Shown piece by piece: positions 1,644 to 57,338 of a DNA stretch of 64,000 nt. The DNA lies in the NCBI GenBank assembly GCA_964654825.1, contig CAZZKG010000006.1, positions 3,478-67,477 on the forward strand, written 5' to 3'. Positions within the stretch are counted from its first letter, which is position 1. Each line of letters opens with the position of its first letter. Below the pieces are notes generated by a model. It had not been told where the DNA came from, did not search any database, and saw nothing but the letters and a program-made list of their open reading frames with translations. Position numbers and translations under genes: made by a program. The stretch comes from an uncultured Gemmatimonadota bacterium. GTDB lineage: Bacteria; Gemmatimonadota; CAZMKB01.

Positions 1644-2031
1644 AATACGTCGCCAGAGTGCCCGCATATCTCGACTTCTTAAACGCCTCCATGTGCACGG
1701 ACTTATAAGAAAAATACCACATTCCTATCGTTGGCGTGTAACTGTCAGAGGAGGGATGATCATGTCAATGGTCTTGAAACTCCATCATGAAGGATATCCT
1801 GAAATCCTTATGAATCAAGCTGCTTGATAATGAAAAACTTCTGCGCATTTTGCGCATAACTTACGGAGTAAGACACTAAATAGAAAATGTTTTTCGTGAA
1901 GTGTACCACCGGGCCGGGCCGCAGTTTGAGACCTCCCCAAGGCTTCAGGGGTATGATGTGGAGCTTCCTGTTTGACTTCCCCCCTTTTTGAGATTATGTT
2001 TGATGTAACTTTTTACCATGAAGGAGTACTG

Positions 2032-2343
2032 ATGAAACAGGGACAGCCGCGAAAACTGAATATCGAGCTTGGAGAGAAGGAAGCCGAAGGGATCTATTCC
2101 AACTTCGTCCTCATCACCCACAACCCTTCCGAGTTCCTTCTGGATTTTGCCAGGGTGGTGCCCGGTGTGCAGAAGGCCAAAGTGTATGCCCGGATTCTCA
2201 TGAACCCCCAGCACGTGAAATCTCTCCATAAAGTATTAAGTGACAACATCGAGCGATTCGAAAGCAAGTTCGGGAAGATCACTCTGCATGGTCAGGAAGA
2301 CAAGAACATCGGTTTCCAGTCGGGACCGAAAACTGATGAATGA
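2032..2343 (+). CDS. DUF3467 family protein
   Basis: MKQGQPRKLNIELGEKEAEGIYSNFVLITHNPSEFLLDFARVVPGVQKAKVYARILMNPQHVKSL matches the DUF3467 pattern. AGGAG RBS lies 6 nt upstream of ATG 2032. Confidence 0.6.
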   Translation: MKQGQPRKLNIELGEKEAEGIYSNFVLITHNPSEFLLDFARVVPGVQKAKVYARILMNPQHVKSLHKVLSDNIERFESKFGKITLHGQEDKNIGFQSGPKTDE

Positions 2344-2457: not shown

Positions 2458-4185
2458 TCAAAAACGCCTCTCGGCCTGAAACTCGAAGGCTTTTTCCGCC
2501 TGCCAGCTCTCGAAATCGAAACCGGAAACATAGGTACTCTGTCTCACATTGGTCCTCAGCATCTTGCACCGCAACGTGTAATTCTTTCCCAGAGTTTTTT
2601 TAAAAACGAGCTGACATCTCTCCCCCTCACCCGACAGCTTCAACACGTGTGACCTCCCGGGAAGACCGCTCTCCACGATGTACAGTGAACCACCCTCGCT
2701 TGACCGGTAAGACGTGAACCTGATCCTGATTTCGATCCCGGCCGGCAGGGGTGATTTTACCTCCACGTACAGAAGCGAAGAACGCCATTTTTTTTTCGTC
2801 TCATTTTCCGTTTCATCCCCGACCTGAATCTGCGCCCTGGTCTTCAGGATGACGTTCGATGCGGGTCTCAGGATCCAATCCCACCGAATTTTCCAGCGAC
2901 TCTCCCGGTCACCTTCTCCTCGACTTGAATCCAGTTCACGCCCAGCCACCGAACAGATCATCGTGATCTTCCTCGCTGGCCTTGTTTTAACACATGCCGC
3001 CACTTCATCGAACCTAGCGTGGTGCGAGCCGGCCTCCGGGAAGAGCTGTCTTCCAAAATCCCGGTAGATACTGAATTCGATTTTTCCGCCTTTCCCTGCT
3101 ACCAGACCGAAATAGGCCGCTTCAAGATTTCCGATACCCGATCCACCGAGTGACATGTCAAAACCGAACGGAGCGAAGTAGTCGTGTGACAGGCGCCGAT
3201 AGAGAAATACAAACGCGGTACTCCCGTGACTTTTCTCCAGACCGGTAAGAACACCGTTGCCGGTGCCGGATTTCTTTGCGATCTCGGTGAACCAGCGCAG
3301 CTGACGCAGCAATGTGACTTCACTCATTCCGGCGACATAGGAGCAGCCCTTTCCGGTTGTGAGAAACGAACCCCGGATCCGGATTTTCTCCCGGGGACGC
3401 AGACCGAAATCGAAAGAACTCACCCGCCCCGGGTCGGTCCCTGCATCGTTCGAACCGTGTGTGAAATTCACGTCGAAGGAATCTCTCGAAAGGCTTACCG
3501 CCCCTCCCCTCAGGATCCTGTTGTCACTTGTACCGGTAGTACCCCTAACACTTCTCCCGGAGAACGGATAGACCACGGGATTCTCAGGAGACCTCAGGCT
3601 GCCGAAAGCCGACCAGGCGAGGAGCCCCTGCCCGAGTGACAGGTAGAGATCACCCGCCGTCACCGAGAGATCGGCGGAGAACGGGGGAGTCATCCGGATG
3701 TACCCGGCGGTAATTTTCTTCTGCTGGTACTTCTTTGTTACCTTGAACGCAGTCCTGAACCGACTTCCCGATCCGCTCAATCTCATTCTGAGATCGCCTC
3801 TCCCGGCCACTCTCCTGGTGTCGATTCTCGCCAGGAATTTATTTTCGGGTTCAATCTTCACGCAGGGAACAATCTCCCGGTACAGGAACTCGTTCATCCC
3901 TTCCACCTTTTTGAGCTGAGAGAGTTTTGTGAATTTTCCCCTCGTTTCTCTGAACCTGATGATCCTCCCGGCAAGGATCGAATCGATCCAAGGGATCAGG
4001 AGAAGATCTCCGGCTGTCGCTCTGTTCAATGAGACGGGATCTGTTTTCAGGTCCTCGAGTCTCTCCCAGACATCCACTCCGTTCTCCTCCGTGAGATCCT
4101 CGAGGTATCCGGAGATATCCTCCTGGGCACAGAGACCTGATATGACAAAGACGAGTAGAAGGGCAAGTAGAGCCGGTGTGCGCAT
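2458..4185 (-). CDS. Secreted helix-hairpin-helix (ComEA-like) domain protein with large C-terminal domain ending in Phe (possible outer-membrane beta-barrel)
   Basis: Signal peptide MRTPALLALLLVFVISGLCAQ. HhH region NRATAGDLLLIPWIDSILAGRIIRFRETRGKFTKLSQLKKVEGM. 1-nt overlap with the upstream gene. C-terminal ...ERRF. Confidence 0.45.
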   Translation of the reverse strand: MRTPALLALLLVFVISGLCAQEDISGYLEDLTEENGVDVWERLEDLKTDPVSLNRATAGDLLLIPWIDSILAGRIIRFRETRGKFTKLSQLKKVEGMNEFLYREIVPCVKIEPENKFLARIDTRRVAGRGDLRMRLSGSGSRFRTAFKVTKKYQQKKITAGYIRMTPPFSADLSVTAGDLYLSLGQGLLAWSAFGSLRSPENPVVYPFSGRSVRGTTGTSDNRILRGGAVSLSRDSFDVNFTHGSNDAGTDPGRVSSFDFGLRPREKIRIRGSFLTTGKGCSYVAGMSEVTLLRQLRWFTEIAKKSGTGNGVLTGLEKSHGSTAFVFLYRRLSHDYFAPFGFDMSLGGSGIGNLEAAYFGLVAGKGGKIEFSIYRDFGRQLFPEAGSHHARFDEVAACVKTRPARKITMICSVAGRELDSSRGEGDRESRWKIRWDWILRPASNVILKTRAQIQVGDETENETKKKWRSSLLYVEVKSPLPAGIEIRIRFTSYRSSEGGSLYIVESGLPGRSHVLKLSGEGERCQLVFKKTLGKNYTLRCKMLRTNVRQSTYVSGFDFESWQAEKAFEFQAERRF

Positions 4186-5048
4186 CAGTTCAAAGAAGGT
4201 GTGAAGCTGATGGAGATCGACCTCGTCTGGCCCAGATCCGAATGTTCTTCGACACCGAGATCAATCTGGAAAAATGATATCCGGATCCCCAATCCGACTG
4301 AAAAGAGGGAAGGGTCCTTTCCCATACCCACGCGAACAGAGCCCCCCCGCCACAACTCTGTCTCAACCCCAAGACAGAACTCGGGAGGATACCTGCTGCT
4401 CTCCTTCATCTCGAACAGGATGATCGTCATGGTGCTCGGAATCCTGAGCGATGCAGACAATGCCGTCACCGGTCTCACCTCCTCTTTGATAGAATCACCG
4501 AACCTCACGATGTCTCTGAGAACAGCACCGAGAACGATCGGTCCCCGATCCCTCTCACCGTAACAGAATCCGAAGGACAGCGATCCAAAGGATTTCCTGC
4601 CGAGGTTTTCGATCGCCACGCTGTTCAGGGAGAGAGAGCCACCCAGCAGAAAAAACCCGGTTTTCCTTCCTATGCTGCATGAGACTTCTTCCTCCCGGTA
4701 AAGATCATTACCAAACCGTGAGAATCCGCCCCCGATCCCGACCGACTCCCATTCCAGGGATCCCCAAAAAACGATCGAGAGAAGACCGGGGACACTGTAA
4801 GGTTGCGTACTCGCTCCGGACAGGGTCAGTTTACCCGCACCCGCGGCCTGAGCCGGGTTGCTTCTCCCCAGAAACCCCGGTCCGGGGAGGAGGACGGAAC
4901 ACCGCCCGAGACCCGTTGAAGCGGCACCAGCATCTCTCACCTCGAAGAGGGGAAGCGGGTATGCGGGGAGGATCCGGGAATTGACCATGATGATGAGGAG
5001 CAGGAATGTCCTGGCTGCTATAGCACCGGTACGCATCGGGATACTCAA
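4185..5048 (-). CDS. Putative outer-membrane protein encoded immediately downstream of the T9SS-CTD cargo gene (candidate PorP/SprF-like partner)
   Basis: N-terminal signal-like hydrophobic segment. Gly/Ser-rich alternating pattern typical of beta-barrels. Operon position. No PorP signature motif was recognised, so family assignment is inference. Confidence 0.3.
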   Translation of the reverse strand: MSIPMRTGAIAARTFLLLIIMVNSRILPAYPLPLFEVRDAGAASTGLGRCSVLLPGPGFLGRSNPAQAAGAGKLTLSGASTQPYSVPGLLSIVFWGSLEWESVGIGGGFSRFGNDLYREEEVSCSIGRKTGFFLLGGSLSLNSVAIENLGRKSFGSLSFGFCYGERDRGPIVLGAVLRDIVRFGDSIKEEVRPVTALSASLRIPSTMTIILFEMKESSRYPPEFCLGVETELWRGGSVRVGMGKDPSLFSVGLGIRISFFQIDLGVEEHSDLGQTRSISISFTPSLN

Positions 5049-5051
5049 AAC

Positions 5052-6878
5052 TCAAAAACGGGGGGCAACGACGACTGTTTTTTTCAAAAGAATTCTCTCC
5101 CTGGACACTTCTTCCTGACAGTCGAGGAGGAGGATGTACAAACCCGCAGGGAGGACAATTCCGTCTTTGGATCTCCCGTCCCACAGAAATGAACCTTCCC
5201 CGGAAGCCCTGACCCCTTTTATCACCGTGGCCACTTCGACACCTGCCATATTGAATATCCTGAGGGAGAAAGACGCAGAGAGAAACGGCACCCGGTATGA
5301 TATATAGACCCGGTCACTCTTACCATCACCGTTGGGAGTGATAACAGAGGGGTACACCGTCAGGCCCCTTCCCTCCGGAATACTTTCCAGAGCGACGCTG
5401 TTTCCCCTCCCCGGCGTCTTCCCGCTTTCATCGAGTGAGAGTGCCCAGTTAGAGGGGATAAGAGAGTGGACACCGGCACTGACCCTCTCCCATGACACGC
5501 CAACACCATCGGCCGGCGCCACTCCATATCCCACTGAATCCACCATCGTACCCCACCGATCACGGAGTACGACCGAATCTCCACTACGGTTGAAGACCGG
5601 GAACGACACAACCTCCACGACCCTGAAGGGAGGGACCGTTCCGTTGTACTTGAGAAACTCATCCCGGTTGCCGGTCAGGACCAGGCACGCATACCCCGGG
5701 ATATAGATCTCCCCTTCCGGGAACTGTGCACTGTTTTCCCCCTCATCCGCCAGCTGCCACCCGCTTATCCTGACGAGATCCGGTCCACTGTTTATGATCT
5801 CGATCCACTGTGGTTCATCACCCGATCTCCAGGCATAGATCTCATTGATCACGACGGCGGTAAGTGAAATCCCAACTCTGATGCTCGTTTTCGCGGTATC
5901 GTTGTCCCCGTAAAAGTCTCCGGCAGCGTTGACATAGGCAACGAGAGAATACAACCCGGCTCTGTTACTCGACCACCCGGTCTTCACCAGGACACTCTCG
6001 CCGGAAGCGACCCCTCCCTGCACATCGACGACTCGAAACGGTGAGAGCCCGTCGAGGTCTGCTCGAAACCCCTCGGTGGCGTAATACTCCACTGAGAGGA
6101 CAGGCAGGTTTTCACGCCCGAACCCGGCTACTGTGCAGGAGAGCTCGACCTCCTCCCCCACGTCGATCGACTGTTTCGTCGGATAAAGCTTTTGATCGAT
6201 CAGCATCGCATCCACACTGCGGTTCTGACTGTTCGCCGCGCCGGGAGTAGCCCCGGCGGAAGAGATACAGCCACCCCAGTTGGAAGGTGAATCGGGGAGA
6301 CCGGGATCCAGACGCTCGAGAGATATGCCGTCGCCGGGATCACCGGGAAAACCGTCGTCTTCGTCAGGAGTGCCGAATGTATCGACCACCCTCTCGTCGG
6401 CATCCAGGAGAAGAAGCGGATCGGTGGTCGAAAGGCCGTCTCCGAGAGTTGTGTTTGCCACGGTGAGTACCAGCGTGGACTCAGGCACAGTGAAGGGAAA
6501 CGGGGGTCCGGAATCGGTCACCTCGGGATCGACGATCAGGGCAAAACAATCCGGGGGAAGAAGTGTCGTCCCGAAAAGCACCCCATCCCACGGAAGATCC
6601 GGATCTTCCCAAGCTCTTAGCTCATCTCTCGCATCCCCGTCATCGATGAACCAGCCCCAAAGATCCACGGCTTCTTCGGAATCATTGAGGATTTCGATGA
6701 ACTCGAACCGGTCGCCGCCCGAACCACTTCCTGAGTCCTGGCCGGGGGCGTTCGCGAGCACTTCGTTTATCACCACCGTACCGGCGATGCATTCCCCGGA
6801 TGCCAGGAGAGGGAGCATCGTCAGAATGAAACCTCTCAGCCATTTTTGTGATGTGGTCTTCGACAATCTCACAATCAA
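5052..6878 (-). CDS. Secreted protein with two lamin-tail domains (LTD) and a T9SS type-B / FlgD-Ig-like C-terminal sorting domain
   Basis: LTD motifs VVINEVLANAPG...RFEFIEILN and AVVINEIYAW...QWIEIINSG. C-terminus VYPSVITPNGDGKSDRVYISY...IFNMAGVEVATV...WDGRSKDGIVLPAGLYILLL has the TPNGDGxND...WDG...G.Y pattern of T9SS type-B CTDs. Confidence 0.6.
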   Translation of the reverse strand: MIVRLSKTTSQKWLRGFILTMLPLLASGECIAGTVVINEVLANAPGQDSGSGSGGDRFEFIEILNDSEEAVDLWGWFIDDGDARDELRAWEDPDLPWDGVLFGTTLLPPDCFALIVDPEVTDSGPPFPFTVPESTLVLTVANTTLGDGLSTTDPLLLLDADERVVDTFGTPDEDDGFPGDPGDGISLERLDPGLPDSPSNWGGCISSAGATPGAANSQNRSVDAMLIDQKLYPTKQSIDVGEEVELSCTVAGFGRENLPVLSVEYYATEGFRADLDGLSPFRVVDVQGGVASGESVLVKTGWSSNRAGLYSLVAYVNAAGDFYGDNDTAKTSIRVGISLTAVVINEIYAWRSGDEPQWIEIINSGPDLVRISGWQLADEGENSAQFPEGEIYIPGYACLVLTGNRDEFLKYNGTVPPFRVVEVVSFPVFNRSGDSVVLRDRWGTMVDSVGYGVAPADGVGVSWERVSAGVHSLIPSNWALSLDESGKTPGRGNSVALESIPEGRGLTVYPSVITPNGDGKSDRVYISYRVPFLSASFSLRIFNMAGVEVATVIKGVRASGEGSFLWDGRSKDGIVLPAGLYILLLDCQEEVSRERILLKKTVVVAPRF

Positions 6879-7182: not shown

Positions 7183-7246
7183 CTGAGTGAGAGAAGGGGA
7201 ATCCTATCACATAGTTTCACCTGGCGAAGTTTCGGATCATCTTCAC

Positions 7247-7777
7247 ATGGCTCTACCAGGAAAGAAGTTTTCGTATTACAGAAACCTCTCGAGGGCCCAG
7301 CAGCGGATCTACGACAGGAGCGATGCGATCGAGACTATATCTCTGTCGCATGCCGAACGCTACCCCCGTGTCATCAAAGACTTGAGGTCCTCGCTCGAGC
7401 GCGATAGCCTGTCAGAGACGAAACAGGCGGTCGAGCGGCTTGTCAGGGGTCTCTGCCAGGATTTCAGGGTGCCGCAGCTCGCTGTGAAGGTTCTCGCCCG
7501 CCGACCGTCGGGGAGCTGGGGTGAGATGCATGGCCTCTACGAACCGGAAGAACGAAGATCTGACGTTCTGACCGTCTGGATGCGCACCGCGAAGAGGAAA
7601 CAGCCTGTCGCCTTCCGGACTTTTCTGAGAACAGTCATCCACGAGTTCATTCACCACCTCGATTTCGCGCACTTCAAACTTCCGGATTCGTTCCACACCG
7701 AGGGCTTCTTCAAACGGGAATCCAGCCTGCTCAAGCAGCTGCTCGGGGAAGAGAAGCAATCAGCCGGGGGGAGTTGA
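7247..7777 (+). CDS. MtfA-like (peptidase M90-like) zinc-dependent protein with HEFxHxLD motif
   Basis: Motif VIHEFIHHLDF resembles MtfA HEFAHKLD. The track ORF starts at a GTG inside the promoter -10/TSS region, so the first ATG (MALPGKK) downstream of the TSS is preferred. Confidence 0.35.
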   Translation: MALPGKKFSYYRNLSRAQQRIYDRSDAIETISLSHAERYPRVIKDLRSSLERDSLSETKQAVERLVRGLCQDFRVPQLAVKVLARRPSGSWGEMHGLYEPEERRSDVLTVWMRTAKRKQPVAFRTFLRTVIHEFIHHLDFAHFKLPDSFHTEGFFKRESSLLKQLLGEEKQSAGGS

Positions 7778-7902
7778 TCGATTTTCAGTCATTGATGCTT
7801 CTTCATCTGTTGATCGCCCCCCCTGATCAGCTGCAATTGGACCGACCGTTCGATCACGTGCACTCACTTCGAGATGTGCCGCACTCAAAGAGCAGATTAT
7901 TC

Positions 7903-7931
7903 TTGACAAACACATAATATTGTGGTAGCAT
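7903..7931 (+). promoter_or_regulatory. Putative sigma70-type promoter TTGACA-N17-TAGCAT
   Basis: TTGACA 7903-7908, 17-nt spacer, TAGCAT 7926-7931, ~55 nt upstream of ATG 7988. Confidence 0.3.
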
Positions 7932-7987
7932 AAAACAAAGGGATCGACAACATACCATCCCGCCATCTCCTCCTCCGGAGGTCCTCG

Positions 7988-9730
7988 ATGGACAGAAAAA
8001 CAACCTCCCTGCTTCTCCTAATCACACTCGTCATCTTCTTCGCCATCTCCTCCACCGAGAGCCGGAAGATCATCGAAGATGAATCCGGAACGAGTGCCGA
8101 CGCGGCCCTCTACCTCGGGCCCGGGGAGGGCACACCGGTTCTCGAAGGTTCATCGTTCGGCTCCTGTGATATCGCCAGGGATGACTGCGGTTCAATTACT
8201 CCGCACCCTTCTTCAGGTTATATCGCTGATGGTGCATACAATGCCATAGATGAAACCATCTTCTTTGTAAGCGTTCCCGGGACAGCTGAGGGAGTGTTCC
8301 AGTTCGATCCCCTCACCTGTACGATCGTCTCCGGAACATTCTACAGCATCAACTCCGGATTGTCGCAGCGAGGAATCGCCTTCGATCCGTCCAGGTACCA
8401 GTTCTGGGCGGGCGGTTGGATAGACTACTACATGAATCAACACGACGCAGCACCTCCTTATCCCAACATCTCATACAACTATGTTGGAATCGCAATAGCT
8501 TCCGGAGCGATAGACCCGGCGAACGATTACCTCTTCATCGGAACGAACAGCTCGTATGACATGGTATACGCCTATGACATCTCCACCGGTTCTCTCGGTG
8601 AACTTCTCGGTTCCTGGATCGTCCCATGGCAGCAGGGATGGGATGGCTGGGACATGGCCGGCATGGCCTTCGACGATGACAGCGGCCAGCTCCTCATTGT
8701 CAACCAGTATCTCGGCGGACCCGGCGAGGCGATGGAGGAATTCGATTTCGACATCGAGACCGGACTCACTCCCGCCGGATTCTGCACGCTCGACAATACG
8801 ACGTATGCCTGGGGGATAGGACTCATAGAAGACGGGGATCCCGCTCCCGGCACCTTTTCGGCATTCGTCACCGACGTCTGGCCTCTCTATGATCCGCCGT
8901 TCGATATCGATGAGTACGGTGAGCCCGATGTCGATCCACCCTACGAACTCGTGTGCACAATCGCCGGATTCGGGGTCGAGCTCACCTGGATAAACGGGGA
9001 AGAATACGACGAAGTGAACATCTCGAGAGATGGAGATCTTGTCGCCATTCTCCCGGGCGATGCCGCCTATTATCTCGATGCCGGCCCCGGTGCCGGCTTT
9101 CACACATACAGCGTCGTGGGTGAAACCGTCCAGGGGGAGAGCCCTGAAACCACCTGCGATGTCCTCGTATACCCGGGTCCAAAACAGACCTGCTTCGATT
9201 TCGAGCTCCTCGACGGCGGCTGGGCGCCGGGAGGAGTCGCCGACTGGGAGTGGGGATGGCCGAGCTATCAACTGGACGGCAAGGCGTGGGAGACCAACAT
9301 CGGAGAAAGGTATTTCAACGACTCCTGCGGATGGCTTGATTCACCTCCCTTTCAGCTCGGGCCGTCGGGAGGATGGCTCGTGTTCGACGTGTACACCTAC
9401 GTGGAGTGCTACTGGGACGGCTGGAATGTCCAGATCTCAACGGACGGCGGCACACAGTGGTCTGTCATCGAACCGCTCCACGGGTACAACCAGGGAGTGC
9501 CGGAAGGAGCATGCAGGGAAGGTCTGGGCGGCGACACGTCCTGCGGTTACCGTGAAGTGGAAACGTGGGAGTTCGATCTGAGCGATTATCCCGACGAGAC
9601 GATCAGGATCAGATTCCTCATTGAATCCGATCAGAGCATCGCCTACACCGGGGTGATCATCGACAACCTCTGCGTCTATGGAATCGCCGGGCCCGAAAGG
9701 TATCATAAGGAAGCCGTGCCGGGACTTTAG
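7988..9730 (+). CDS. Secreted protein with Fn3-like and C-terminal MAM/'choice-of-anchor'-like beta-sandwich region
   Basis: Signal peptide MDRKTTSLLLLITLVIFFAISS. Fn3-like segment PYELVCTIAGFGVELTWINGEEYDEVNISRDG. Trp/Gly-rich C-terminal ~180 aa (WEWGWPSYQLDGKAWETN...GWNVQISTDGGTQWSV). Stop is TAG. Confidence 0.4.
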   Translation: MDRKTTSLLLLITLVIFFAISSTESRKIIEDESGTSADAALYLGPGEGTPVLEGSSFGSCDIARDDCGSITPHPSSGYIADGAYNAIDETIFFVSVPGTAEGVFQFDPLTCTIVSGTFYSINSGLSQRGIAFDPSRYQFWAGGWIDYYMNQHDAAPPYPNISYNYVGIAIASGAIDPANDYLFIGTNSSYDMVYAYDISTGSLGELLGSWIVPWQQGWDGWDMAGMAFDDDSGQLLIVNQYLGGPGEAMEEFDFDIETGLTPAGFCTLDNTTYAWGIGLIEDGDPAPGTFSAFVTDVWPLYDPPFDIDEYGEPDVDPPYELVCTIAGFGVELTWINGEEYDEVNISRDGDLVAILPGDAAYYLDAGPGAGFHTYSVVGETVQGESPETTCDVLVYPGPKQTCFDFELLDGGWAPGGVADWEWGWPSYQLDGKAWETNIGERYFNDSCGWLDSPPFQLGPSGGWLVFDVYTYVECYWDGWNVQISTDGGTQWSVIEPLHGYNQGVPEGACREGLGGDTSCGYREVETWEFDLSDYPDETIRIRFLIESDQSIAYTGVIIDNLCVYGIAGPERYHKEAVPGL

Positions 9731-9755
9731 GGGGGTGATCGCATTGACTCGAGGA

Positions 9756-11462
9756 ATGTTTGTCCATCTCACGAGAGCGTTTTGCGGAATACTCTGCGTC
9801 TCAACGTATCTTCATGCGCAAGGGGAGGCATCCAGGCTCACCCGTTTCCCCGAGCTGGACGGTTTTCCCGTCTCCTTCGAAGAAGACGTGTTTCCCTCCT
9901 CCGGTATGAACGTGGGGGATATCGACGGGGACGGCGACCTCGAGATATGCTTCGGTACACGGCGCGGTGCTCTCTTCGCTTACCACCACACCGGCGCCGT
10001 TGTCGAAGGATGGCCCGTCGGTATGGAAGGTGGATGGCTTGAAGCGACCCCTGCCCTGGTCGATATCGATAACGATGGCGATCTCGAAGTTTTCGTCACG
10101 AACGGTACTTATCTTCACGCCTTCCATCACGATGGAGAACCACTGGAGGGGTGGCCGGTCGCTCTCGATCATTCCGTTCACAGTGATGCCACACCTTCGA
10201 TCGGGGACCTGGACGGTGACGGAGATTACGAGATCGTTCACGGCGCCGCCGAATATCCCTGCCTCATCTTCGCCTGGCACCACGACGGCACGCCGGTCGA
10301 CGGCTGGCCGGTGTACATCCCGCCGGGATATCTTAACCACTGCGATTGTTTCGCAGCCCCCACTCTCGCCGATCTCGACGGAAACGGAAAACTCGAAGTT
10401 GTTGTCGTAACGAGAGGAGGCCAGGTGTATGTCATCAACAACGACGGGAGTGATTTCGAGGGCTGGCCGGTCGACGGTATCCAGGGCATGCACAATTACA
10501 ATTCCCCGGTGATCGGAGACATCGATAACGATGGAGAAGTCGACATTGTCGTGGTGGCAGATTACACGGTTTTCGCGTGGGACATAAACGGCAATGATAA
10601 GCCCGGCTGGCCATGGCAGGAGGGATTCTCCAGTGGTGTCATCCTGGCCGACCTCGTTTCCGATGAAGCCCTCGAGGTCATCGCGAACACATCTAACTCC
10701 ATCTATGTGCTCGACGGTCCGACCGGCGAAGTACTCCCCGGCTGGCCCCAGCCTGTGGGAATGTCAGTCAGTATCGCCGGGACGGTGATTACAAACGATA
10801 TCGACTCCGATGGTGAGAAGGAGATCCTCGTCGAATGCTGGGGACAGCATTCCGGCGTACGCTCAACCGGGTATGTGCTCGCTTATAATGCGGATGGGAG
10901 CACGGTCGAGGGATTCCCCATCGTCCTGGATTCTGAAACCGCCTCGCTGCCGCCGTTAATCGTCGATTTCGATCTCGACGGCGACCTCGACATCTGCGGC
11001 CTCACCGGTACGTATTTTCATGCCTGGGACCTTCCCTCCTATTTCGAGGCCGATCAGGGGGACTGGCGCATGCTGAACCACGATCCTTTTCACACCAACG
11101 ATTTCGGCCTGCTGCTCCCCACCGAGCATCCGATCGATGTCGGTCTCAAACCCGACACGGTGACCGTGCACCGGGGCGAATCGGTTGATCTGATAGCATC
11201 GTTCACCAATCGAAACGTCATCTACCAGCCGTTTACCACTGCGATATTTCTCAGGATGCCGAACGGTGAGCCTTTCCCGGCCAATCCACTGCTCGGTCCC
11301 CTGTCGCTGCGTCTCAAACTTCTCTCCGGGGTGATGACCGAGAAATCCCTTGATGTTCCGATCAATGCTCCACTCGGTGATTACCGGTTGCTACTCCCCG
11401 CCTGGACATCAGTGTACAACATCATGGACGTCGATTCCACGATAGTCCACGTCATCGATTGA
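9756..11462 (+). CDS. FG-GAP/VCBS repeat (integrin-alpha-like beta-propeller) secreted protein
   Basis: Repeated DxDGDGDLE(I/V) motifs (GDIDGDGDLEI, VDIDNDGDLEV, GDLDGDGDYEI, ADLDGNGKLEV, GDIDNDGEVDI, FDLDGDLDI) alternating with GWP motifs. Start is set at MFVHL..., a signal-like stretch after the upstream stop, rather than the overlapping track start 9678. Confidence 0.6.
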   Translation: MFVHLTRAFCGILCVSTYLHAQGEASRLTRFPELDGFPVSFEEDVFPSSGMNVGDIDGDGDLEICFGTRRGALFAYHHTGAVVEGWPVGMEGGWLEATPALVDIDNDGDLEVFVTNGTYLHAFHHDGEPLEGWPVALDHSVHSDATPSIGDLDGDGDYEIVHGAAEYPCLIFAWHHDGTPVDGWPVYIPPGYLNHCDCFAAPTLADLDGNGKLEVVVVTRGGQVYVINNDGSDFEGWPVDGIQGMHNYNSPVIGDIDNDGEVDIVVVADYTVFAWDINGNDKPGWPWQEGFSSGVILADLVSDEALEVIANTSNSIYVLDGPTGEVLPGWPQPVGMSVSIAGTVITNDIDSDGEKEILVECWGQHSGVRSTGYVLAYNADGSTVEGFPIVLDSETASLPPLIVDFDLDGDLDICGLTGTYFHAWDLPSYFEADQGDWRMLNHDPFHTNDFGLLLPTEHPIDVGLKPDTVTVHRGESVDLIASFTNRNVIYQPFTTAIFLRMPNGEPFPANPLLGPLSLRLKLLSGVMTEKSLDVPINAPLGDYRLLLPAWTSVYNIMDVDSTIVHVID

Positions 11463-13301: not shown

Positions 13302-15473
13302 CTATGGCAGCCCTTTCCTCCTTCTCACGATGAGTTCGACGAAGAACAGAAGGAGGAGAACGAGATAGGTAACCGGCTCACTTTTCATCTCGAAACGCAG
13401 CGGCTTTACCCCCTTATTTCCGAAGGCGGTTACGGCAGAGGCGAGGGACTCGACCTGACCGGGGTCAAACACGCTCCCCCCGGTAGTTTTCGACAGTGAT
13501 CCCATGAAGGCCGGATCCGGTCTGGGATCGTCGAACTCACGCGAGGACGCATCAACCAGAATTGTTCCTTCGCTCGCGGTAGCATAGTCAGCCGTACCTT
13601 CTTCCCGCGCCCTGTACTGATATACACCGGGGGAGAGGAATATCTCGTCGCTGTACGATGACTTCTCAGTCTCGATTACAAAAGTGTATGAGCTGTCTCT
13701 CCCCCTTTCGGATAACTGCTCGAGCTCCAGAAGAATGTCTCCACCTTTCGCCGACGATCCGCGAAATGTGACTCCATCCCCCATTCTTACCGAGTTGGTG
13801 AGCGGTTCACAGAACGAGCTCCTTAGTAACGAAGGCTCGGCGAGCCATTCGAGCATACCCTGACAAAGCTTCCGGTAATAAGGGCCTCTGCCGAACTGGA
13901 GTGGAAACATGTCCCACTGCCAGAACCCTCCCCCGAGGAGGATGAGACCGCGTGCACCGCTGAACCCCTGTTCCGTCACGACCGCCACCGGGACCTCCAC
14001 ACTCCCTGCCGCTTCAGAACTCAAAATCGACATGAAACCCTTCTCCATACTCACTCCCGTGAGGACGTACCGAAGTGGAGAGAGTTCTTCCCACTCACCG
14101 AATTCCCGTCCGAACACGGTCGATATAACGGGATGAGAGGAAACCGAGCCGCTCGCTTTCACACCCCCGGCCTGAGAAATCTTCTGTACGCCATGGGGAA
14201 AGGGACAGAGTGCTTTGATCTCACCCCAGGAACTCGCGTCTTTCCACGGCACAGACGGCAGAAGCAGGACACCGACATCCCCGCTCCTCAATCGTCCCGA
14301 CACTGTCTCCAGAACAGATCGGGGGATACGCGCGAAGTCACCCTGCAGCACGACGACACTCGAGGTCTCAACCGAACGTCGTAGATTTTCTCCGGCTTCA
14401 CTCAGGGATACGAACCGGCTTGCCTCCTCGAGGCTCGTCAGCTTTCCATTCACGGGCTCGATCACAGTCGCTGCTTCGTATTCGGGAAACGACCCCACGT
14501 GCCGCTTGAGAAAGGTGAGGTCCCAGTCGGGCGAATTCGAATACAGGAAGACCTGCCGTTTCGATCTCCTCACTTTCAGGTAGAGAGATCGGGTGTTGTT
14601 CACCGTTGTAAACTCTTCACCACCGGTCTCGACGTGAACTTCGACTAGGTGCATCCCGGGCCTCATGGCAGGAAGAAGAGAACCAATCTCCATTCTCGTT
14701 CCATTCCCGTCCAGGGTGATCACACGATTCTCAGTAATTTTCTCATCGAGCTTCACCGTGACATCCACACGTGAGCTGTCCGGACCGAATCCCGACAGGA
14801 GTATCCGAAGAGGTACTTCCTCTCCCTGAAACAGCGGTTCAGAGACATTCAGTGAAAATATGGAGGCATCGAAGATCCCGGGATCACTACCCACGAGCAA
14901 TCCGAAGACCGGAGTTTCGGCGCCTTCCACGTCATGAACGTGAATGGGCCCTGTTGTCACTCTCCCATCTGAGACCACGACGATGGGATAGGACACTCCG
15001 TCTCCGGAAGTCAAGCCGGCATCGAGGACCGAGCTGATGATATCGGTACCACCCATCACGCTCTCTTCTCCACGCGAATCACCTTCTCTCTGTACCGTTT
15101 CCCCGAACGGCAGTTTTACGATTTCCCAATCGTTTCCGAGGAGGGATACCAACCGGGTTACGGCGCTGTCGGCACGTTGGGACCGGCTGGTGGCAGAGCC
15201 CGATGAGTCAGGGAGTCCCATGCTGAGAGAGTGATCTTCGAGTACGATCACCCGCTTCTGTCCGGTCCCGTGCGGAAGGATCAGTGTGAGCCCGATCAAA
15301 CTCGAGAGTACCACCAGGAAAACCAGTCCTCTGAGCACGCCGAGTATTACCAGGAGCGATCCACCGAAGAGCTTGCGGACAGCATCCTGGGTGGTGAACA
15401 CCCATGGGAGTGCCAGGACGAGGTACAACACCAGGAGGACCTTGAATGAGAGGATCTCGGTTACAAATTTCAC
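13302..15473 (-). CDS. Large membrane protein, BatA-like N-terminal double-TM plus vWA-like region, C-terminal TM anchor
   Basis: Two N-terminal TM helices, RVIVLEDHSLSM/IVVVSDG vWA-like strands, C-terminal PVTYLVLLLLFFVELIVRRRKG anchor. Family assignment is tentative. Confidence 0.3.
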   Translation of the reverse strand: MKFVTEILSFKVLLVLYLVLALPWVFTTQDAVRKLFGGSLLVILGVLRGLVFLVVLSSLIGLTLILPHGTGQKRVIVLEDHSLSMGLPDSSGSATSRSQRADSAVTRLVSLLGNDWEIVKLPFGETVQREGDSRGEESVMGGTDIISSVLDAGLTSGDGVSYPIVVVSDGRVTTGPIHVHDVEGAETPVFGLLVGSDPGIFDASIFSLNVSEPLFQGEEVPLRILLSGFGPDSSRVDVTVKLDEKITENRVITLDGNGTRMEIGSLLPAMRPGMHLVEVHVETGGEEFTTVNNTRSLYLKVRRSKRQVFLYSNSPDWDLTFLKRHVGSFPEYEAATVIEPVNGKLTSLEEASRFVSLSEAGENLRRSVETSSVVVLQGDFARIPRSVLETVSGRLRSGDVGVLLLPSVPWKDASSWGEIKALCPFPHGVQKISQAGGVKASGSVSSHPVISTVFGREFGEWEELSPLRYVLTGVSMEKGFMSILSSEAAGSVEVPVAVVTEQGFSGARGLILLGGGFWQWDMFPLQFGRGPYYRKLCQGMLEWLAEPSLLRSSFCEPLTNSVRMGDGVTFRGSSAKGGDILLELEQLSERGRDSSYTFVIETEKSSYSDEIFLSPGVYQYRAREEGTADYATASEGTILVDASSREFDDPRPDPAFMGSLSKTTGGSVFDPGQVESLASAVTAFGNKGVKPLRFEMKSEPVTYLVLLLLFFVELIVRRRKGLP

Positions 15474-16795
15474 GATGAGTTCCTCGGCTGCGTGCCGGTT
15501 TTTTGAGTGTTCATCAAAAAACTCAACGCCTCTGAAACAGTGTAGAAGGATCCGGTTACCAGAAGGTATGAATCCCCATCCAGGGCATCAAGCCCGCGGG
15601 AGACCGCGGAAGAGATATCGGGTTCTTCACGGGATCTGCGGTTCAACCGCCTGGCAGAGTCATAGAGTTCGGCCGGTTCGGCTCGTCTCTCGTGACGGGT
15701 GAAATCTGGTTTGCTCACGATGAACTCACGAGTGACGGGGGACAGGATTTCCAATATCCCGCGGCTGTCCTTATCCGAAGACATCCCCACCACAACAATC
15801 GCTTTTTTATCCTGCATTGTCTCTCGCAGAGCCCCCGTGAGCACCGACGAGGCGGCAATGTTGTGCGCGACATCCAGGATGACGATCCCCCGAGGCGTTT
15901 CGATCACCTGAAATCTGCCCGGTACGGTTGTCTCCTTCAGACCTCTCCTTATCTTTTCTTCTGTGCAACTAAGGCCTTTGAAACATTCCTCGAGAGTAAA
16001 GAGAGCGAGTGCCGCATTCCTCACCTGGTGTGCCCCGACCATGCTTATCCTGAGCTTCTCCAGGATATTCTTCGCGGAACCGTATGAGAAGATAGAACCG
16101 CCGATCGAACACCCGGTAATCGCGATGTCCACGTGCTCATCCAGCATCAGGGCTTCACAGCCACGCTCACCTGCGACCTGGTGGATGAGAGCGACGACAT
16201 CAGGATCCGTCTCACAGGTGACGACCGGGACACCACGCTTCAGGATCCCCAGTTTTTCCCGGGTTATGTCTTCTATCGTCGGTCCGAGCTGAGCCTGGTG
16301 ATCGACTGAAATAGTTGTGATTACGGATGCGACTGGATTCAGCACGTTTGTGGCATCGAGCCTTCCTCCGAGCCCGACCTCGCACACGGCTATGTCCACG
16401 CCTATTTCCGCGAAATACGAGAATGCAATGGCTGTCGTAGCCTCGAAAAAGGTCAGCGAACCGCCCCGGATCATCTTCTCGTGTTCCCTGACCCATCCTG
16501 CGACATAAGCTCTGTCGATGTATTCCCCGTTGACCGTCACGCGTTCACCGAAATCGAGTATGTGAGGCGATGTGTAGAGGCCGACTCTTAATCCACAAGC
16601 ACCGAGGATCGATCCCAGGAAAAAACAGGTGGATCCTTTCCCGTTGGTACCAGCGACGTGAATGCTCCGGAACCTGTTCTGGGGATTCCCGATTGCGTCG
16701 AGGAACGCCGTGACTCTGTCGAGGCCGAGCTTTACTCCGAATCTCTGGAGACCGAATAAAAACCGCACTGCTTTCGTGTAAGAGGCGTTGCTCAT
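15470..16795 (-). CDS. folC: Bifunctional folylpolyglutamate synthase / dihydrofolate synthase
   Basis: HVAGTNGKGST P-loop, LGLYTSPHILDFGERV, VCEVGLGGRLDATNV (Mur ligase family FolC signature regions). Confidence 0.85.
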   Translation of the reverse strand: MSNASYTKAVRFLFGLQRFGVKLGLDRVTAFLDAIGNPQNRFRSIHVAGTNGKGSTCFFLGSILGACGLRVGLYTSPHILDFGERVTVNGEYIDRAYVAGWVREHEKMIRGGSLTFFEATTAIAFSYFAEIGVDIAVCEVGLGGRLDATNVLNPVASVITTISVDHQAQLGPTIEDITREKLGILKRGVPVVTCETDPDVVALIHQVAGERGCEALMLDEHVDIAITGCSIGGSIFSYGSAKNILEKLRISMVGAHQVRNAALALFTLEECFKGLSCTEEKIRRGLKETTVPGRFQVIETPRGIVILDVAHNIAASSVLTGALRETMQDKKAIVVVGMSSDKDSRGILEILSPVTREFIVSKPDFTRHERRAEPAELYDSARRLNRRSREEPDISSAVSRGLDALDGDSYLLVTGSFYTVSEALSFLMNTQKTGTQPRNSS

Positions 16796-17940: not shown

Positions 17941-18612
17941 TTACTCTCGCTTCCAGGGACGCCCCTTGGGCATAGCCCGTAATCGCCGGTTTAAATTTCT
18001 CTCCAGCTCGGAGATAAACCCATCACTCCCCAACGGACGACCTGTCCGGTTGGAATTACGTATTTGAATCAATTCATCCACATCCTCTGTGGATTGTAAC
18101 GTTGTCTTCCAGTCTTTCCTGATATTTTCATCGCACCAAGTCGACATATCGAGTAATCCTGTTGAGTCATGACCCGTCACATGCGCCTTCGCACTCGACC
18201 ACGGATAACACCAGGCATCTCGTACGATACCGGCTCTTACTGGATTCCTTTCTACGTATCGGACCGTGGCCCAATAGTGCATTGCATCGAGAGGACAAGA
18301 GTAAAATCGGGCTTGCCAAAGATGGCCACTCCGATTATTAAGACGATTAAAGTATTGCGCATATGAAAAGTGCGTTCGGCCGAGGGTTTTCGACAGAGAG
18401 TCCTCGTTTGCCGGGACAACAACAAGGTGAACATGATTGGACATTAGACAGTACGAGTGAACAGTGAGATGATAACGTTTAGATTGTTCTTTCAAATACG
18501 ATATATATCGTTCCCTTTCACCATCGATAGCGAAAACGTCCTGGCGGTTATTCCCGCGTTGCGTGACGTGATGTGGTACACCAATAGCCACTGCTCTTGC
18601 TATTCTGACCAT
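17941..18612 (-). mobile_element. IS200/IS605-like Y1 transposase of the REP-associated tyrosine transposase (RAYT) type
   Basis: HxH motif CLMSNHVHLVV, catalytic Tyr region HYWATVRYVERNPVRAGIV, ~220 aa. Flanked by REPs in inverted orientation. Confidence 0.8.
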
Positions 18613-18772
18613 ATGGGAAACCTGTTCTTGAGAAACGAGTCGGAAAACAGGGAGGATGAAGGGAGCACGTTACAGATATCTAGTCACAGACTCAGATGAA
18701 TCTCGGAGGGGGCAAGGATAACTATCTCTAATATCTATAAAAAAAGGGTACTGTCAAGTAGTAAATCTAAAT

Positions 18773-18800
18773 AATAAACGGTGACTGTCCCTATTTAATT
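18773..18800. repeat. REP copy (inverted orientation) at the 5' side of the RAYT gene, overlapping the stop codon of the 18795-20078 gene
   Basis: AATAAACGGTGACTGTCCCTATTTAATT is the reverse complement of the 17872 repeat. Confidence 0.8.
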
Positions 18801-20078
18801 TGGGCGAGAAGCGACTGCGAGATAGGTGCGCCTCTTCCAGGGCTCGTTGACATCGTGTCCCGCGTTGTATGCTAGGATGTATCGGCCGTGTTCTTCATCG
18901 ATCATGAGGGTCGGCGTACGCTGGAAGCCTTCAGGCGGTACGCCGTCGGGAAACTGCCCCGGTGCGATGATCGGGTTATCCGGATGGCCGATCCAGGTGT
19001 CGCCCCAGTCGGGTGACCAGTAATAGGCGATGTGTCCGTAACCGGCGTAGTTCTGATTTGAAACCATTAAAACCATGTGGACGCCGTCAGCGATTGAATC
19101 ACCCGTACAGTGGGCCTGCCAGGCGCCGCGAAATGAAAACCCCTCCGGCCACGGCAGCGTCCACCGATAGGCGGGATTGTCCGGGTCGGAAGGATCGAAC
19201 GTCGGCTCCGGATTCTTCACCCAGCCGGTCTTGCCATCCTCGCTGTCCGCGTAGGAAATTCGCCAGTTCCAGTAGGAGCCGGGGGATCCGTGCAACCCCC
19301 GGTAGAAAAGCCTAACCTTTCCCTGTGTGCCCAGGCGAGGCACCCAGACCGGTGTCGGTTCACTCAGGCCACCCTTTATCACACCGTTCTGATCCCAGCC
19401 CTCCTCCCACCAGTATTCAGCAACTAGCATGTTCTCGTAAGTCTGATCGAATGGGACTCCGATCGCAGGCGGCGTCTCGCTCGTCGCCACCTGGATTGCA
19501 GTCTCCGATCCCGGTAGACCATCCCACTCCGGATGCAGATACTTCGTGCCGGGTCTCACGGTGTTGTAGAGCAGATGCTCACCGGTTACAGGATGTTGAA
19601 TGTAACCGGGCGTATCGGTGTGTTCCCACGCGGGACCCGGGTTTTGTCCTCCGGGACTGACGAGGGGCGTGTATTTGATTTTCGTAACCGGATCGTAGCC
19701 CAGGGCCCAGTCGTGAAGCACTTCTTCCTGGTAGGGGTGCTCGGTCATGTATGTCGCGTGATAGCTGTGATACAGCAGCTTTATCATGCCACCCTCGAGA
19801 AAAATGAACTCTTCACCGACGATACCTCCCCAGTCGCCGTACAGGTGTGTCTGAGAATCAGGATAATCAGGATGGGGGGCTGTTATGAAACCGATGGGCG
19901 TGAAATCCGGCCATTCCCCCAGCGGACCGTCTTCGCCGAAGTTATGCGGTATGGCCAACCTGGGGGTGAGGAACTCATTGGAATCATTTGAATCCGCACC
20001 GTTCTGGGGCCGTAACGGGGAGAACAGGAGAAGACAGATCGAGAAGAAAGCAGTGATGATTATCGTGATGCGGTACAT
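18795..20078 (-). CDS. Secreted Trp-rich hypothetical protein (possible glycoside-hydrolase-like beta-propeller)
   Basis: Signal peptide MYRITIIITAFFSICLLLFSPL. No confident family. Last codon and stop lie within the REP. Confidence 0.35.
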   Translation of the reverse strand: MYRITIIITAFFSICLLLFSPLRPQNGADSNDSNEFLTPRLAIPHNFGEDGPLGEWPDFTPIGFITAPHPDYPDSQTHLYGDWGGIVGEEFIFLEGGMIKLLYHSYHATYMTEHPYQEEVLHDWALGYDPVTKIKYTPLVSPGGQNPGPAWEHTDTPGYIQHPVTGEHLLYNTVRPGTKYLHPEWDGLPGSETAIQVATSETPPAIGVPFDQTYENMLVAEYWWEEGWDQNGVIKGGLSEPTPVWVPRLGTQGKVRLFYRGLHGSPGSYWNWRISYADSEDGKTGWVKNPEPTFDPSDPDNPAYRWTLPWPEGFSFRGAWQAHCTGDSIADGVHMVLMVSNQNYAGYGHIAYYWSPDWGDTWIGHPDNPIIAPGQFPDGVPPEGFQRTPTLMIDEEHGRYILAYNAGHDVNEPWKRRTYLAVASRPN

Positions 20079-55943: not shown

Positions 55944-56029
55944 GCGAGAGTGGCGGAACTGGTAGACGCGCTGGACTTAGGATCCTGTGGGCATGACCCG
56001 TGGGGGTTCAAGTCCCCCCTCTCGCACCA
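55944..56029 (+). tRNA. tRNA-Leu (anticodon TAG), type II with long variable arm, CCA encoded
   Basis: Acceptor GCGAGAG/CTCTCGC, D-arm GCGG-AACTGGTAGA-CGCG, anticodon loop CTTAGGA, T-arm GGGGG-TTCAAGT-CCCCC, 3' ACCA. Confidence 0.85.
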
Positions 56030-56048
56030 TCTGGAAACAAAGAGATCG

Positions 56049-57338
56049 ATGAGCATGAATGAAATCAATGTAACAGTCAGAGAAGAGGGTGATTCCCACC
56101 GCATTCTGTCGATCCGGGTTGCCGGTTCGAAGATGCAGAGGGAGAGAGAGAAGATCATAAAACGGTTCCAGAAAAAGGCCAAGATTCCCGGCTTTCGTCC
56201 CGGCAGGATCCCAAAACAGATCATCGAAAAAAATTTCCAGGACGACATCAAACTCGAATTGATGGAAACGGTTATTAAGGATGCGTACCGGGAAGCACTC
56301 AAAGAACAGGATCTCAATCCCATATCACAGCCACGATTTTCCAATGTCGAAACTTCACCCGATTCAACCATGTCATTCGATGCCACGTTCGATGTCAAAC
56401 CGAACGTGGAGGTGAGGCGATACACCGGTTTCAAGATCGAGAAGAAAGTGAGCACGGTATCCGATTCGGAGACAGAGAGGGTACTGGAGAGGTTGAGGAG
56501 AGAGCGGGCCGTCTCGAGTCCGGTCGATCGGCCGGCCCAGACAGGAGACCTCGTCAGCATGTCGTATATTTCGCTGAATGAGGATGGTACACCGATCAAG
56601 GACGAACCCACGAAGAGTATCGATGTTAACCTGGGCGATGGTGGAGTACTCAATGAGATAGAGAATGGAATTATCGGAATGAGCCCAACAGAAGAGAAGG
56701 AAATCACAGTTACTTATCCTGGAGATTACTTCGTCGAGAGTCTCCGGCGGGCCACCCGAAAACTCATCATCACGGTGTCGGAAGTTAAGGAGGTTGTTCT
56801 GCCGCCTCTCGATGATGAGTTCGCAAAGAGTATCGATCCCGGCAAGGACCTGGAATCCCTCAGGGAGGAGATCAAAACACGACTCACGGAGGAAAAAGTA
56901 CGGAAGGCAGAGAGAGATGTGACCGAGAAGCTGATCGACCTCGTGATCGAGGCGAATCCCTTCGAATCACCGAAGATTATTGTCGAAGGCTACCTCGATG
57001 AGTTTCTCCACAGACTTGCCGAAGAGCGGAAAGCAGCCGGGCAGGATTTCGATCCTGAAAAAGTGAGAGACGCCTATCGACCGGCAGCCGAGAGGGTTTT
57101 CAAGAAGAACTTCTTACTCGAGTCGATTGCCAGAGCCGAGAGCATAGATGTGACCGAAGACGACATGGAGAAAGAGCTTTTGAGTATTTCCCAGGGGTCA
57201 GAACCATACCTCGAATCGCTGAGAAGAGGATTGGAAAAGGACTCCGGTGCGATGGAGAATTTTAAGTCTGATATCAAACACAAAAAAGTGACTGAATTCC
57301 TGAAAAACAATTCGGAAGTGAGAGAACAATATGAGTGA
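56049..57338 (+). CDS. tig: Trigger factor
   Basis: [18 protein letters not shown] ribosome-binding signature, PPIase and C-terminal domains. The track ORF start lies inside the tRNA, so the start is set at MSMNEINV. Confidence 0.9.

Follow-up and report, generated by a model that had tools for sequence, protein, structure and literature searches.

A conserved three-gene locus of a Glassbacteria-like bacterium encodes a predicted secreted two-LTD protein, a putative small PorV/PorQ-type barrel and an HhH-bearing barrel-like protein

A 64,000-nucleotide stretch of a contig from an uncultured Gemmatimonadota bacterium (GenBank assembly GCA_964654825.1, contig CAZZKG010000006.1, positions 3,478 to 67,477; hereafter the window) carries three consecutive minus-strand open reading frames (ORFs) that encode, in gene order 1-2-3, proteins of 608, 287 and 575 aa. 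The host is an uncultured Glassbacteria-like bacterium, Glassbacteria being a class of Gemmatimonadota in GTDB (PMC11316326). Gene 1 encodes a predicted secreted protein with two lamin tail domains (LTDs), gene 2 a predicted small outer-membrane β-barrel, and gene 3 a protein combining a helix-hairpin-helix (HhH) domain with a large barrel-like region. The features of this trio and of its convergent neighbor are as follows, L001 to L004 being four other contigs described below.

5052..6878, minus strand: gene 1, secreted cargo (608 aa, TTG start) with a signal peptide, an LTD, a β-rich middle, a second LTD and a C-terminal β-sandwich
6228..6779, minus strand: LTD 1, approximately residues 34-217, with boundaries derived from the alignment of LTD 1 with LTD 2
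5397..5858, minus strand: LTD 2, approximately residues 341-494, the best Pfam LTD stretch being residues 341-452
5055..5387, minus strand: C-terminal FlgD-Ig/CHU_C-like β-sandwich, putative sorting or anchoring domain, approximately residues 498-608
4185..5048, minus strand: gene 2, predicted divergent PorV/PorQ-family 14-strand outer-membrane barrel (287 aa, TTG start)
4839..4952, minus strand: N-terminal conserved segment of gene 2, PLFE..GA.STGLGRCS...NPA, from the ortholog alignment
2458..4185, minus strand: gene 3 (575 aa, ATG start, ending in ...ERRF), with a signal peptide, an HhH domain and a large β-barrel-like region
3871..4041, minus strand: ComEA-type (HhH)2 domain with degenerate hairpins IPWID and VEGMN, residues 49-105 (HHH_3)
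2461..3855, minus strand: undescribed C-terminal region, predicted β-meander or large barrel, residues 111-575
1972..2343, plus strand: convergent DUF3467 gene (Pfam DUF3467, 90 bits), found at the same position in L001-L004, context only

The three genes are tightly packed. Direct reading of the junction between genes 1 and 2 revealed a TGA stop, then 3 nt, then a TTG start, whereas a preliminary description of this DNA had given a gap of 4 nt; the 1-nt overlap that it reported between the TGA of gene 2 and the ATG of gene 3 was correct. Gene 2 also contains an in-frame ATG 12 nt inside its TTG, and an identical ENA protein (P0001, 283 aa) begins at that ATG. In a promoter and terminator scan, no upstream minus-strand sequence resembled a sigma-70 site, a consensus that may not apply to this lineage. 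For family assignments, we scanned Pfam and NCBIfam models, inspected hits up to E 1 and compared scores with the curated or gathering cutoffs. In loci fetched for comparison, ORFs were called by a simple longest-ORF rule.

We observed the same trio, followed by the convergent DUF3467 gene, in four other contigs (L001-L004) within a syntenic accD-folC neighborhood. L001 and L002 carry identical genes, so that the four contigs represent three distinct sequences; one of the contigs belongs to an NCBI metagenome-assembled genome (MAG) labelled Candidatus Glassbacteria. The trio is present in GCA_046760905.1, a Glassbacteria MAG. Identity to the window proteins ranges from 56 to 61% for the cargo, 42 to 51% for the small barrel and 36 to 47% for the large barrel, and the trio is complete in every Glassbacteria-type locus seen. 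Close homologs are very rare, as five per trio protein were found among 5.8 billion clusters. Because the arrangement recurs together with DUF3467 in four other contigs at 36-61% protein identity, it is not due to chance. These observations bear out the three-gene secreted or outer-membrane operon proposed in the preliminary description.

The gene 1 product matches the LTD model PF00932 in two stretches with 93.4 bits against a gathering score of 34.3. LTD 1 and LTD 2 share 27% identity (E 5e-9) and thus form an internal repeat. The C-terminal β-sandwich that follows scores above the Pfam gathering score of 27 with both CHU_C (36.6 bits, residues 509-590) and FlgD_ig (32.5 bits, residues 526-581), and holds a TPNGDG motif together with the FlgD-type pattern WDG...G..LP.GLY. 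The cargo orthologs of L001, L003 and L004, which are 56-61% identical to gene 1, all end in VAPRF. CHU_C is weak, faint or absent in these three orthologs, and FlgD_ig is the consistent match there. Furthermore, when a profile of the four orthologs was compared with PDB sequences, the nearest solved relative of this C-terminal domain (CTD) was the FlgD Ig domain 3osv (E 1.7e-8). A metagenome scan with the CTD profile added no further trio; the CTDs that it recovered were all distant and FlgD-like (28-42% identity). The description of gene 1 as an LTD cargo is supported.

On transitive homology, gene 2 encodes a putative divergent and miniature member of the PorV/PorQ branch of FadL-fold barrels. 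With the gene 2 family profile, a full HMMER search across 1.84 billion representatives retrieved 2,569 proteins at E<=1e-3, including 677 at E<=1e-10, and most of these relatives are 265-290 aa long and matched over their full length. Family assignment of 50 sequences sampled from the 2,569 showed that 46 match the PorV/PorQ model NF033709 (best E 7.9e-25), 37 the PorQ model, 27 the 'putative PorV2' model and 14 the PorV model, although the PorV/PorQ scores of the relatives checked individually fell below the curated cutoffs in every case. PorP/SprF (TIGR03519) was matched by two of the 50 and Toluene_X by four. Gene 2 itself has no match to Toluene_X, nor to the PorP/SprF models TIGR03519 and PF11751 at E up to 1. 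The prediction of an outer-membrane barrel of a T9SS-related family in the position expected of a cognate carrier is supported, but the identity proposed for that barrel, PorP/SprF, is not.

A structure prediction built from five sequences gave gene 2 a 14-strand FadL-type barrel fold, with residues 20-55 poorly modelled (predicted local distance difference test score, pLDDT, <50), and a search of PDB sequences with the gene 2 family profile returned chance matches only. Across six sequences, residues P33-E36, G41-A42, T45-S51 and N64-A66 are invariant. The GLGRCS...NPA part of this N-terminal segment corresponds to the consensus GARxxGMGxAxVA...NPAGL of the wider family, and the segment resembles the N-terminal hatch motif of FadL and PorV. 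SprF has a C-terminal Cys-x-Cys tail (PMC12635249). We considered such a tail as a possible link to a gliding track and rejected it, as it is absent from gene 2, whose only invariant cysteine is C50 in the N-terminal segment. C50 is the single invariant cysteine in the GLGRCS motif of the Glassbacteria small barrels and is missing from the wider-family consensus GMGGA. T9SS (type IX secretion system) outer-membrane proteins have been reported to be disulfide-linked to the PorK/GldK track, at a position other than C50 (PMC12635249).

In the gene 3 product, residues 49-105 are the sole part that matches known families (HHH_3, 43.5 bits against 27 in Pfam). A Glassbacteria profile matched the solved ComEA structures 8dss (E 1.1e-9) and 2duy (E 4.9e-8), and a broader profile matched 8dss at E 1.2e-15. 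Full-length ComEA models scored below their cutoffs on gene 3 (TIGR01259, 29.8 bits against 152; TIGR00426, 23.6 against 53.1). For the remaining ~460 aa, a predicted β-meander, neither Pfam and NCBIfam nor the PDB gave any matching family. The region showed no POTRA, usher or plug domain, although its predicted model is poor; the structure model of gene 3 is of low confidence and was built from shallow alignments, as word-indexed searches gave 4-5 hits each and the profile search missed known members. We also considered gene 3 as a lipoprotein and rejected this possibility, as the cysteine of its LCAQE sequence is not kept in orthologs. Our results agree with the preliminary description of gene 3 as a ComEA-type HhH protein with a β-barrel-like region ending in Phe.

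Both hairpins of the gene 3 HhH domain lack the canonical G-I-G. They read IPWID and VEGMN/S in Glassbacteria, and IPGLS and VPGMD in distant homologs. The second glycine of the canonical G-I-G hairpin is replaced by an Asp, which would be expected to weaken binding to the phosphate backbone. Since both termini of even-stranded barrels usually face the periplasm, the HhH domain would be periplasmic. This topology and the altered hairpins both weaken the proposal, made with the trio's preliminary description, of a module binding extracellular DNA.

Homologs of genes 2 and 3 also occur together in other phyla. A distant gene 3 homolog, P0010 (689 aa), shares 22% identity with gene 3 over the whole C-terminal region, and its gene follows, after 2 nt, one encoding a 280-aa protein with homology to that of gene 2 (hhalign probability 96%, E 2.6e-9). 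Divergently upstream in the same locus lies a gene for PorD, identified by an NCBIfam equivalog at 266.8 bits against 170. PorD is a component of the extended T9SS translocon, and its phylogenetic distribution follows that of the T9SS (PMC10994853; PMC8754138). Furthermore, of the 150 best relatives of the small barrel, 12 have one or two ComEA-type HhH modules fused to the barrel C-terminus, which ties the small barrel to the domain carried by gene 3. These fused modules are canonical (LPGIG...GIGxK).

A scan of one genome per GTDB species, seeded with four of the HhH-fusion sequences, revealed 22 loci, all from MAGs of KSB1, Calditrichota, Ignavibacteria and 'Cytophagia'. A gene 3 homolog of 655-707 aa lies directly downstream of the small barrel in 20 of the 23 non-Glassbacteria loci with a small barrel, and these homologs score between E 1e-41 and 1e-143 with a profile that excludes the HhH domain. 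At least 27 homologs of the large barrel were found in all. The 20 loci with adjacent barrels are from KSB1, Calditrichota, Ignavibacteria and Bacteroidota-like genomes, and 19 of them also contain porD. Of the 21 loci with upstream context, 20 encode a PorD homolog that is divergent and lies upstream, either adjacent or one gene removed. PorD was checked with the curated model in four loci and by local jackhmmer search in the others. L005 (266.8 bits) and L026 (243.7 bits) pass the equivalog cutoff of 170, whereas L012 falls below it. L012 additionally has a nearby PorU-like sortase with a type-A CTD. In these other phyla, the pair comes without a dedicated cargo gene.

In L009-L028 (for example L012:5009-9808 and L026:4982-8793), the cluster order is a divergent porD, the small barrel, often HhH-tailed, the 655-707-aa HhH-barrel and a conserved gene of ~194 aa. 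This last gene, which has a weak DUF6913 match, often follows the pair, and a gene for a GGDEF protein is often next.

No Pfam or NCBIfam model covers the pair, and our literature searches (PorV2, HhH outer-membrane barrels, Glassbacteria secretion) found no description of it. As far as these libraries and searches show, the porD-linked two-barrel pair, with its unnamed large-barrel family, is undescribed.

PorV binds cargo CTDs or PorU, PorQ holds PorZ, and both are FadL-fold 14-strand barrels. Gene 2 resembles them in that its relatives match PorV/PorQ hidden Markov models (HMMs), in its N-terminal G-x-G...NPA segment and in its position next to a gene for a protein with a C-terminal β-sandwich. 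Conversely, it is far smaller (287 aa against ~345-390) and itself scores below every PorV/PorQ model. It is also coupled to an HhH-bearing large barrel without counterpart in the described T9SS, and its host belongs to Glassbacteria rather than Bacteroidota. Compared with FadL and TodX, gene 2 is ~140 residues shorter and lacks the Toluene_X match, and its context suggests protein display instead of lipid uptake.

The layout of the trio is also reminiscent of type-B cargo operons. In F. johnsoniae, a type-B cargo, an SprF-like carrier and a PorE-like protein are encoded as three-gene operons such as Fjoh_3952-3951-3950 (PMC12618676), and a PG1035-PorP-PorE complex has been described (PMC9143113). 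The likenesses are the order of cargo, outer-membrane barrel and periplasm-facing third envelope protein, the dedication of one barrel to each cargo, and a cargo that ends in a β-sandwich with TPNGDG. The components are different: gene 2 is of the PorV/PorQ family, not PorP/SprF, and lacks the SprF Cys-x-Cys tail, the CTD of gene 1 fails TIGR04131, and gene 3 combines an HhH domain with a barrel where the known operons encode an OmpA-like peptidoglycan binder.

On the basis of these comparisons, the reading that we favor, tentatively and at somewhat less than even confidence, is that the trio is a surface-display module of the T9SS family, made up of a cargo, a dedicated PorV/PorQ-type carrier and an uncharacterized partner barrel. 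A report that Gemmatimonadetes may have a T9SS (PMC11285876) is in line with this reading. The gene 1 product would be exported by Sec, and its C-terminal FlgD-Ig/CHU_C-like sandwich would sort and anchor it. The gene 2 barrel, made from the same transcript, would serve as its dedicated carrier or anchor, with extracellular loops that may bind the C-terminal sandwich as PorV does with cargo CTDs, for example the RemA CTD in structure 8gl6, and PorQ with PorZ. The LTDs would thereby be displayed on the cell surface, where the gene 2 product probably holds the gene 1 product. The gene 3 product would be the small barrel's obligate partner, itself an outer-membrane barrel of larger size whose N-terminal HhH domain would face the periplasm. 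The two barrels may be an ancient unit found throughout the Fibrobacteres-Chlorobi-Bacteroidetes (FCB) group, an outer-membrane sub-complex working with or derived from the T9SS, and the Glassbacteria version has its own cargo gene upstream of the pair. The binding of the CTD to the barrel, the exposure of the cargo at the surface, its need for a T9SS translocon, the periplasmic placement of the HhH domain and whatever the large barrel contributes are inferred.

Several results weigh against this interpretation. Scans with Pfam and NCBIfam gave no match for the 287-aa protein itself, and none to the PorV/PorQ models even at E up to 1; its family membership is argued from transitive homology and from a structure prediction based on just five sequences. 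The CTD of gene 1, which the preliminary description assigned to type B, scored 14.7 bits with the type-B model TIGR04131 against a cutoff of 35, so that this assignment fails. Gene 1 likewise has no match to the type-A CTD (TIGR04183/Por_Secre_tail) at E up to 1 in NCBIfam and Pfam, and the search of PDB sequences with the CTD profile retrieved no solved T9SS CTD. No second copy of this CTD was found among the window ORFs, in the first eight loci or in the Glassbacteria-type loci. As no other protein of the window or of the Glassbacteria loci bears it, the CTD is possibly not a general sorting signal. Furthermore, no T9SS core gene (SprA, PorK/L/M/N, PorU, PorV, PorD) was found in the 64-kb window, where the scan covered ORFs of at least 200 aa, or in the Glassbacteria loci; the Glassbacteria sequence scanned amounts to ~140 kb (the window and L001-L004). 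The porD adjacency seen in other phyla is likewise missing, with no PorD homolog in the window or L001-L004.

The trio might instead be a device for capturing or taking up DNA, for competence or scavenging, an explanation that we regard as unlikely. The LTD protein would bind extracellular DNA, the large barrel would act as a conduit, the periplasmic HhH domain would pull DNA in and the small barrel would anchor the receptor. LTDs do occur in secreted bacterial nucleases, and bacterial LTDs themselves are not known to bind DNA. The HhH domain of gene 3 is of the HHH_3-type (HhH)2 kind with significant matches to solved ComEA structures, and fully canonical ComEA modules, one or two per protein, are borne by small-barrel relatives. 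The likeness to ComEA is nevertheless confined to a 57-residue domain fused to an outer-membrane-barrel-like region of ~460 aa, and the hairpin glycines are replaced, the hairpins of the large-barrel family being degenerate above all in Glassbacteria. Bacteroidota lack a defined outer-membrane route for DNA, and natural transformation of Riemerella anatipestifer, an FCB bacterium, requires the same three types of parts, a surface protein (RA0C_RS04920), an outer-membrane β-barrel (RA0C_RS04915) and an HhH protein (RA0C_RS02645) (PMC8459023). This set, which we compared by description only, differs in that its genes are not all in one operon and its function was shown genetically. No comEC, comF, dprA or pilus gene lies beside the pair in the ~25 loci with called flanking genes, of which representative neighbors were scanned with models, and the conserved neighbor is porD, a secretion gene.

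Other explanations place the trio elsewhere in the envelope. A self-contained secretion or insertion system that works without a T9SS, in which the LTD protein would be carried by the small barrel and would have the large barrel as its translocon or as an Omp85- or usher-like helper, would agree with the lack of T9SS genes in the ~140 kb of Glassbacteria sequence, the restriction of the CTD to the gene 1 protein, the ever-complete trio and the resemblance of the invariant VAPRF end of the cargo orthologs to an outer-membrane-protein β-signal. We consider it rather improbable: 140 kb is a small genome sample, the pair in other phyla adjoins porD and has no cargo gene of its own, and POTRA, usher and plug domains are lacking from the (poorly modelled) large barrel. 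The arrangement originally proposed, a type-B CTD cargo with a cognate PorP/SprF carrier and an accessory protein, draws on the gene order shared with F. johnsoniae type-B operons and on the CHU_C score above the gathering score in gene 1, yet it is very improbable, as CHU_C fades in the orthologs, 46 of the 50 sampled gene 2 relatives match PorV/PorQ against two for PorP/SprF, gene 2 has no C-terminal Cys-x-Cys and gene 3 is not PorE-like. Both HMM tests (TIGR04131 and PorP/SprF) fail, and the model is therefore refuted at the family level. The proposal is partly supported: its logic, a cargo with a cognate T9SS-related outer-membrane barrel, is right, while the families that it named were wrong. 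We attach hardly any likelihood to the barrels being accessory subunits of the β-barrel assembly machinery, like the FadL-like BamG of Bacteroidota, with the LTD gene a mere neighbor: matches to BamG are marginal (best E 3.9e-4 against 7.9e-25 for PorV/PorQ), the 3-nt spacing and the conserved order bind the cargo gene to the barrels, and no bam genes are nearby.

To our knowledge, the T9SS carriers described so far are PorV, which is general, or PorP/SprF, which are dedicated. Read as a surface-display module, the locus suggests a third arrangement, in which a miniature PorV/PorQ-type barrel serves one cargo and is invariably paired with a large barrel whose family has no name. The presence of the pair beside porD in at least four other lineages makes it a candidate for an overlooked T9SS-associated component outside Bacteroidota. 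Furthermore, the canonical ComEA fusions on the small barrel raise the question of why a DNA-binding fold should stand at the periplasmic face of a secretion-related barrel. It is conceivable, though we think it unlikely, that the two barrels form an unrecognized two-barrel outer-membrane machine encoded beside porD across the FCB group, either a missing T9SS sub-complex or a pilus-independent DNA route, for which the Glassbacteria trio would name its own surface ligand-binding subunit.

Pairs of CTD proteins and PorV-like barrels were also found in two metagenomic loci. In L041:1221-6820, the genes for a FlgD/CHU_C-type CTD protein and for a PorV-like barrel (~517 aa) form tandem, translationally coupled pairs, and the L041 barrel bears a C-terminal LysM domain where other relatives have HhH. 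L098:3352-5273 contains one such pair in reverse order, with a 508-aa barrel followed by the CTD protein. These pairs fit the same cargo-carrier logic.

Elsewhere in the window, three plus-strand genes (7187-11462) lie between the trio and a PMT-family gene and are missing from the syntenic L003. None of their products has a recognizable CTD: one (196 aa, no Pfam match) contains an HEFIHH motif and is possibly a zinc metalloprotease, another is secreted (580 aa) and shows a weak InhA-like MAM domain, and the last is an FG-GAP repeat protein of 594 aa. On the minus strand, a 723-aa ORF without Pfam match (13302-15473) overlaps the stop of a folC-like gene (15470-16795) by 4 nt and has conserved counterparts at the equivalent place in L001 (710 aa) and L003 (717 aa). 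An IS200/Y1-type transposase gene (223 aa) and a family-less 427-aa ORF (17941-20078, minus strand) lie between accD and a PNP_UDP_1 gene; since accD and the PNP_UDP_1 gene adjoin each other in L001 and L003, this segment is probably an insertion. A long same-strand surface-polysaccharide cluster (29552-51610, minus strand) encodes several GT4 glycosyltransferases, a flippase, a Wza-like Poly_export/SLBB protein, a sugar transferase, a PMT_2 protein, a PIG-L deacetylase and four sulfatase/phosphodiesterase-family proteins of 586-727 aa. Near the start of the window, adjacent plus-strand ORFs of 166 and 120 aa (771-1643) resemble two parts of one P-loop ATPase (GPRQSGKTT) and are possibly a frameshifted pseudogene. 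Finally, a tRNA-Leu gene (55944-56029, plus strand) lies just upstream of a tig-clpP-clpX-lon cluster. As the ORF 55950-57338 overlaps this tRNA gene and its Trigger_N match starts at residue 40, the true tig start lies downstream.

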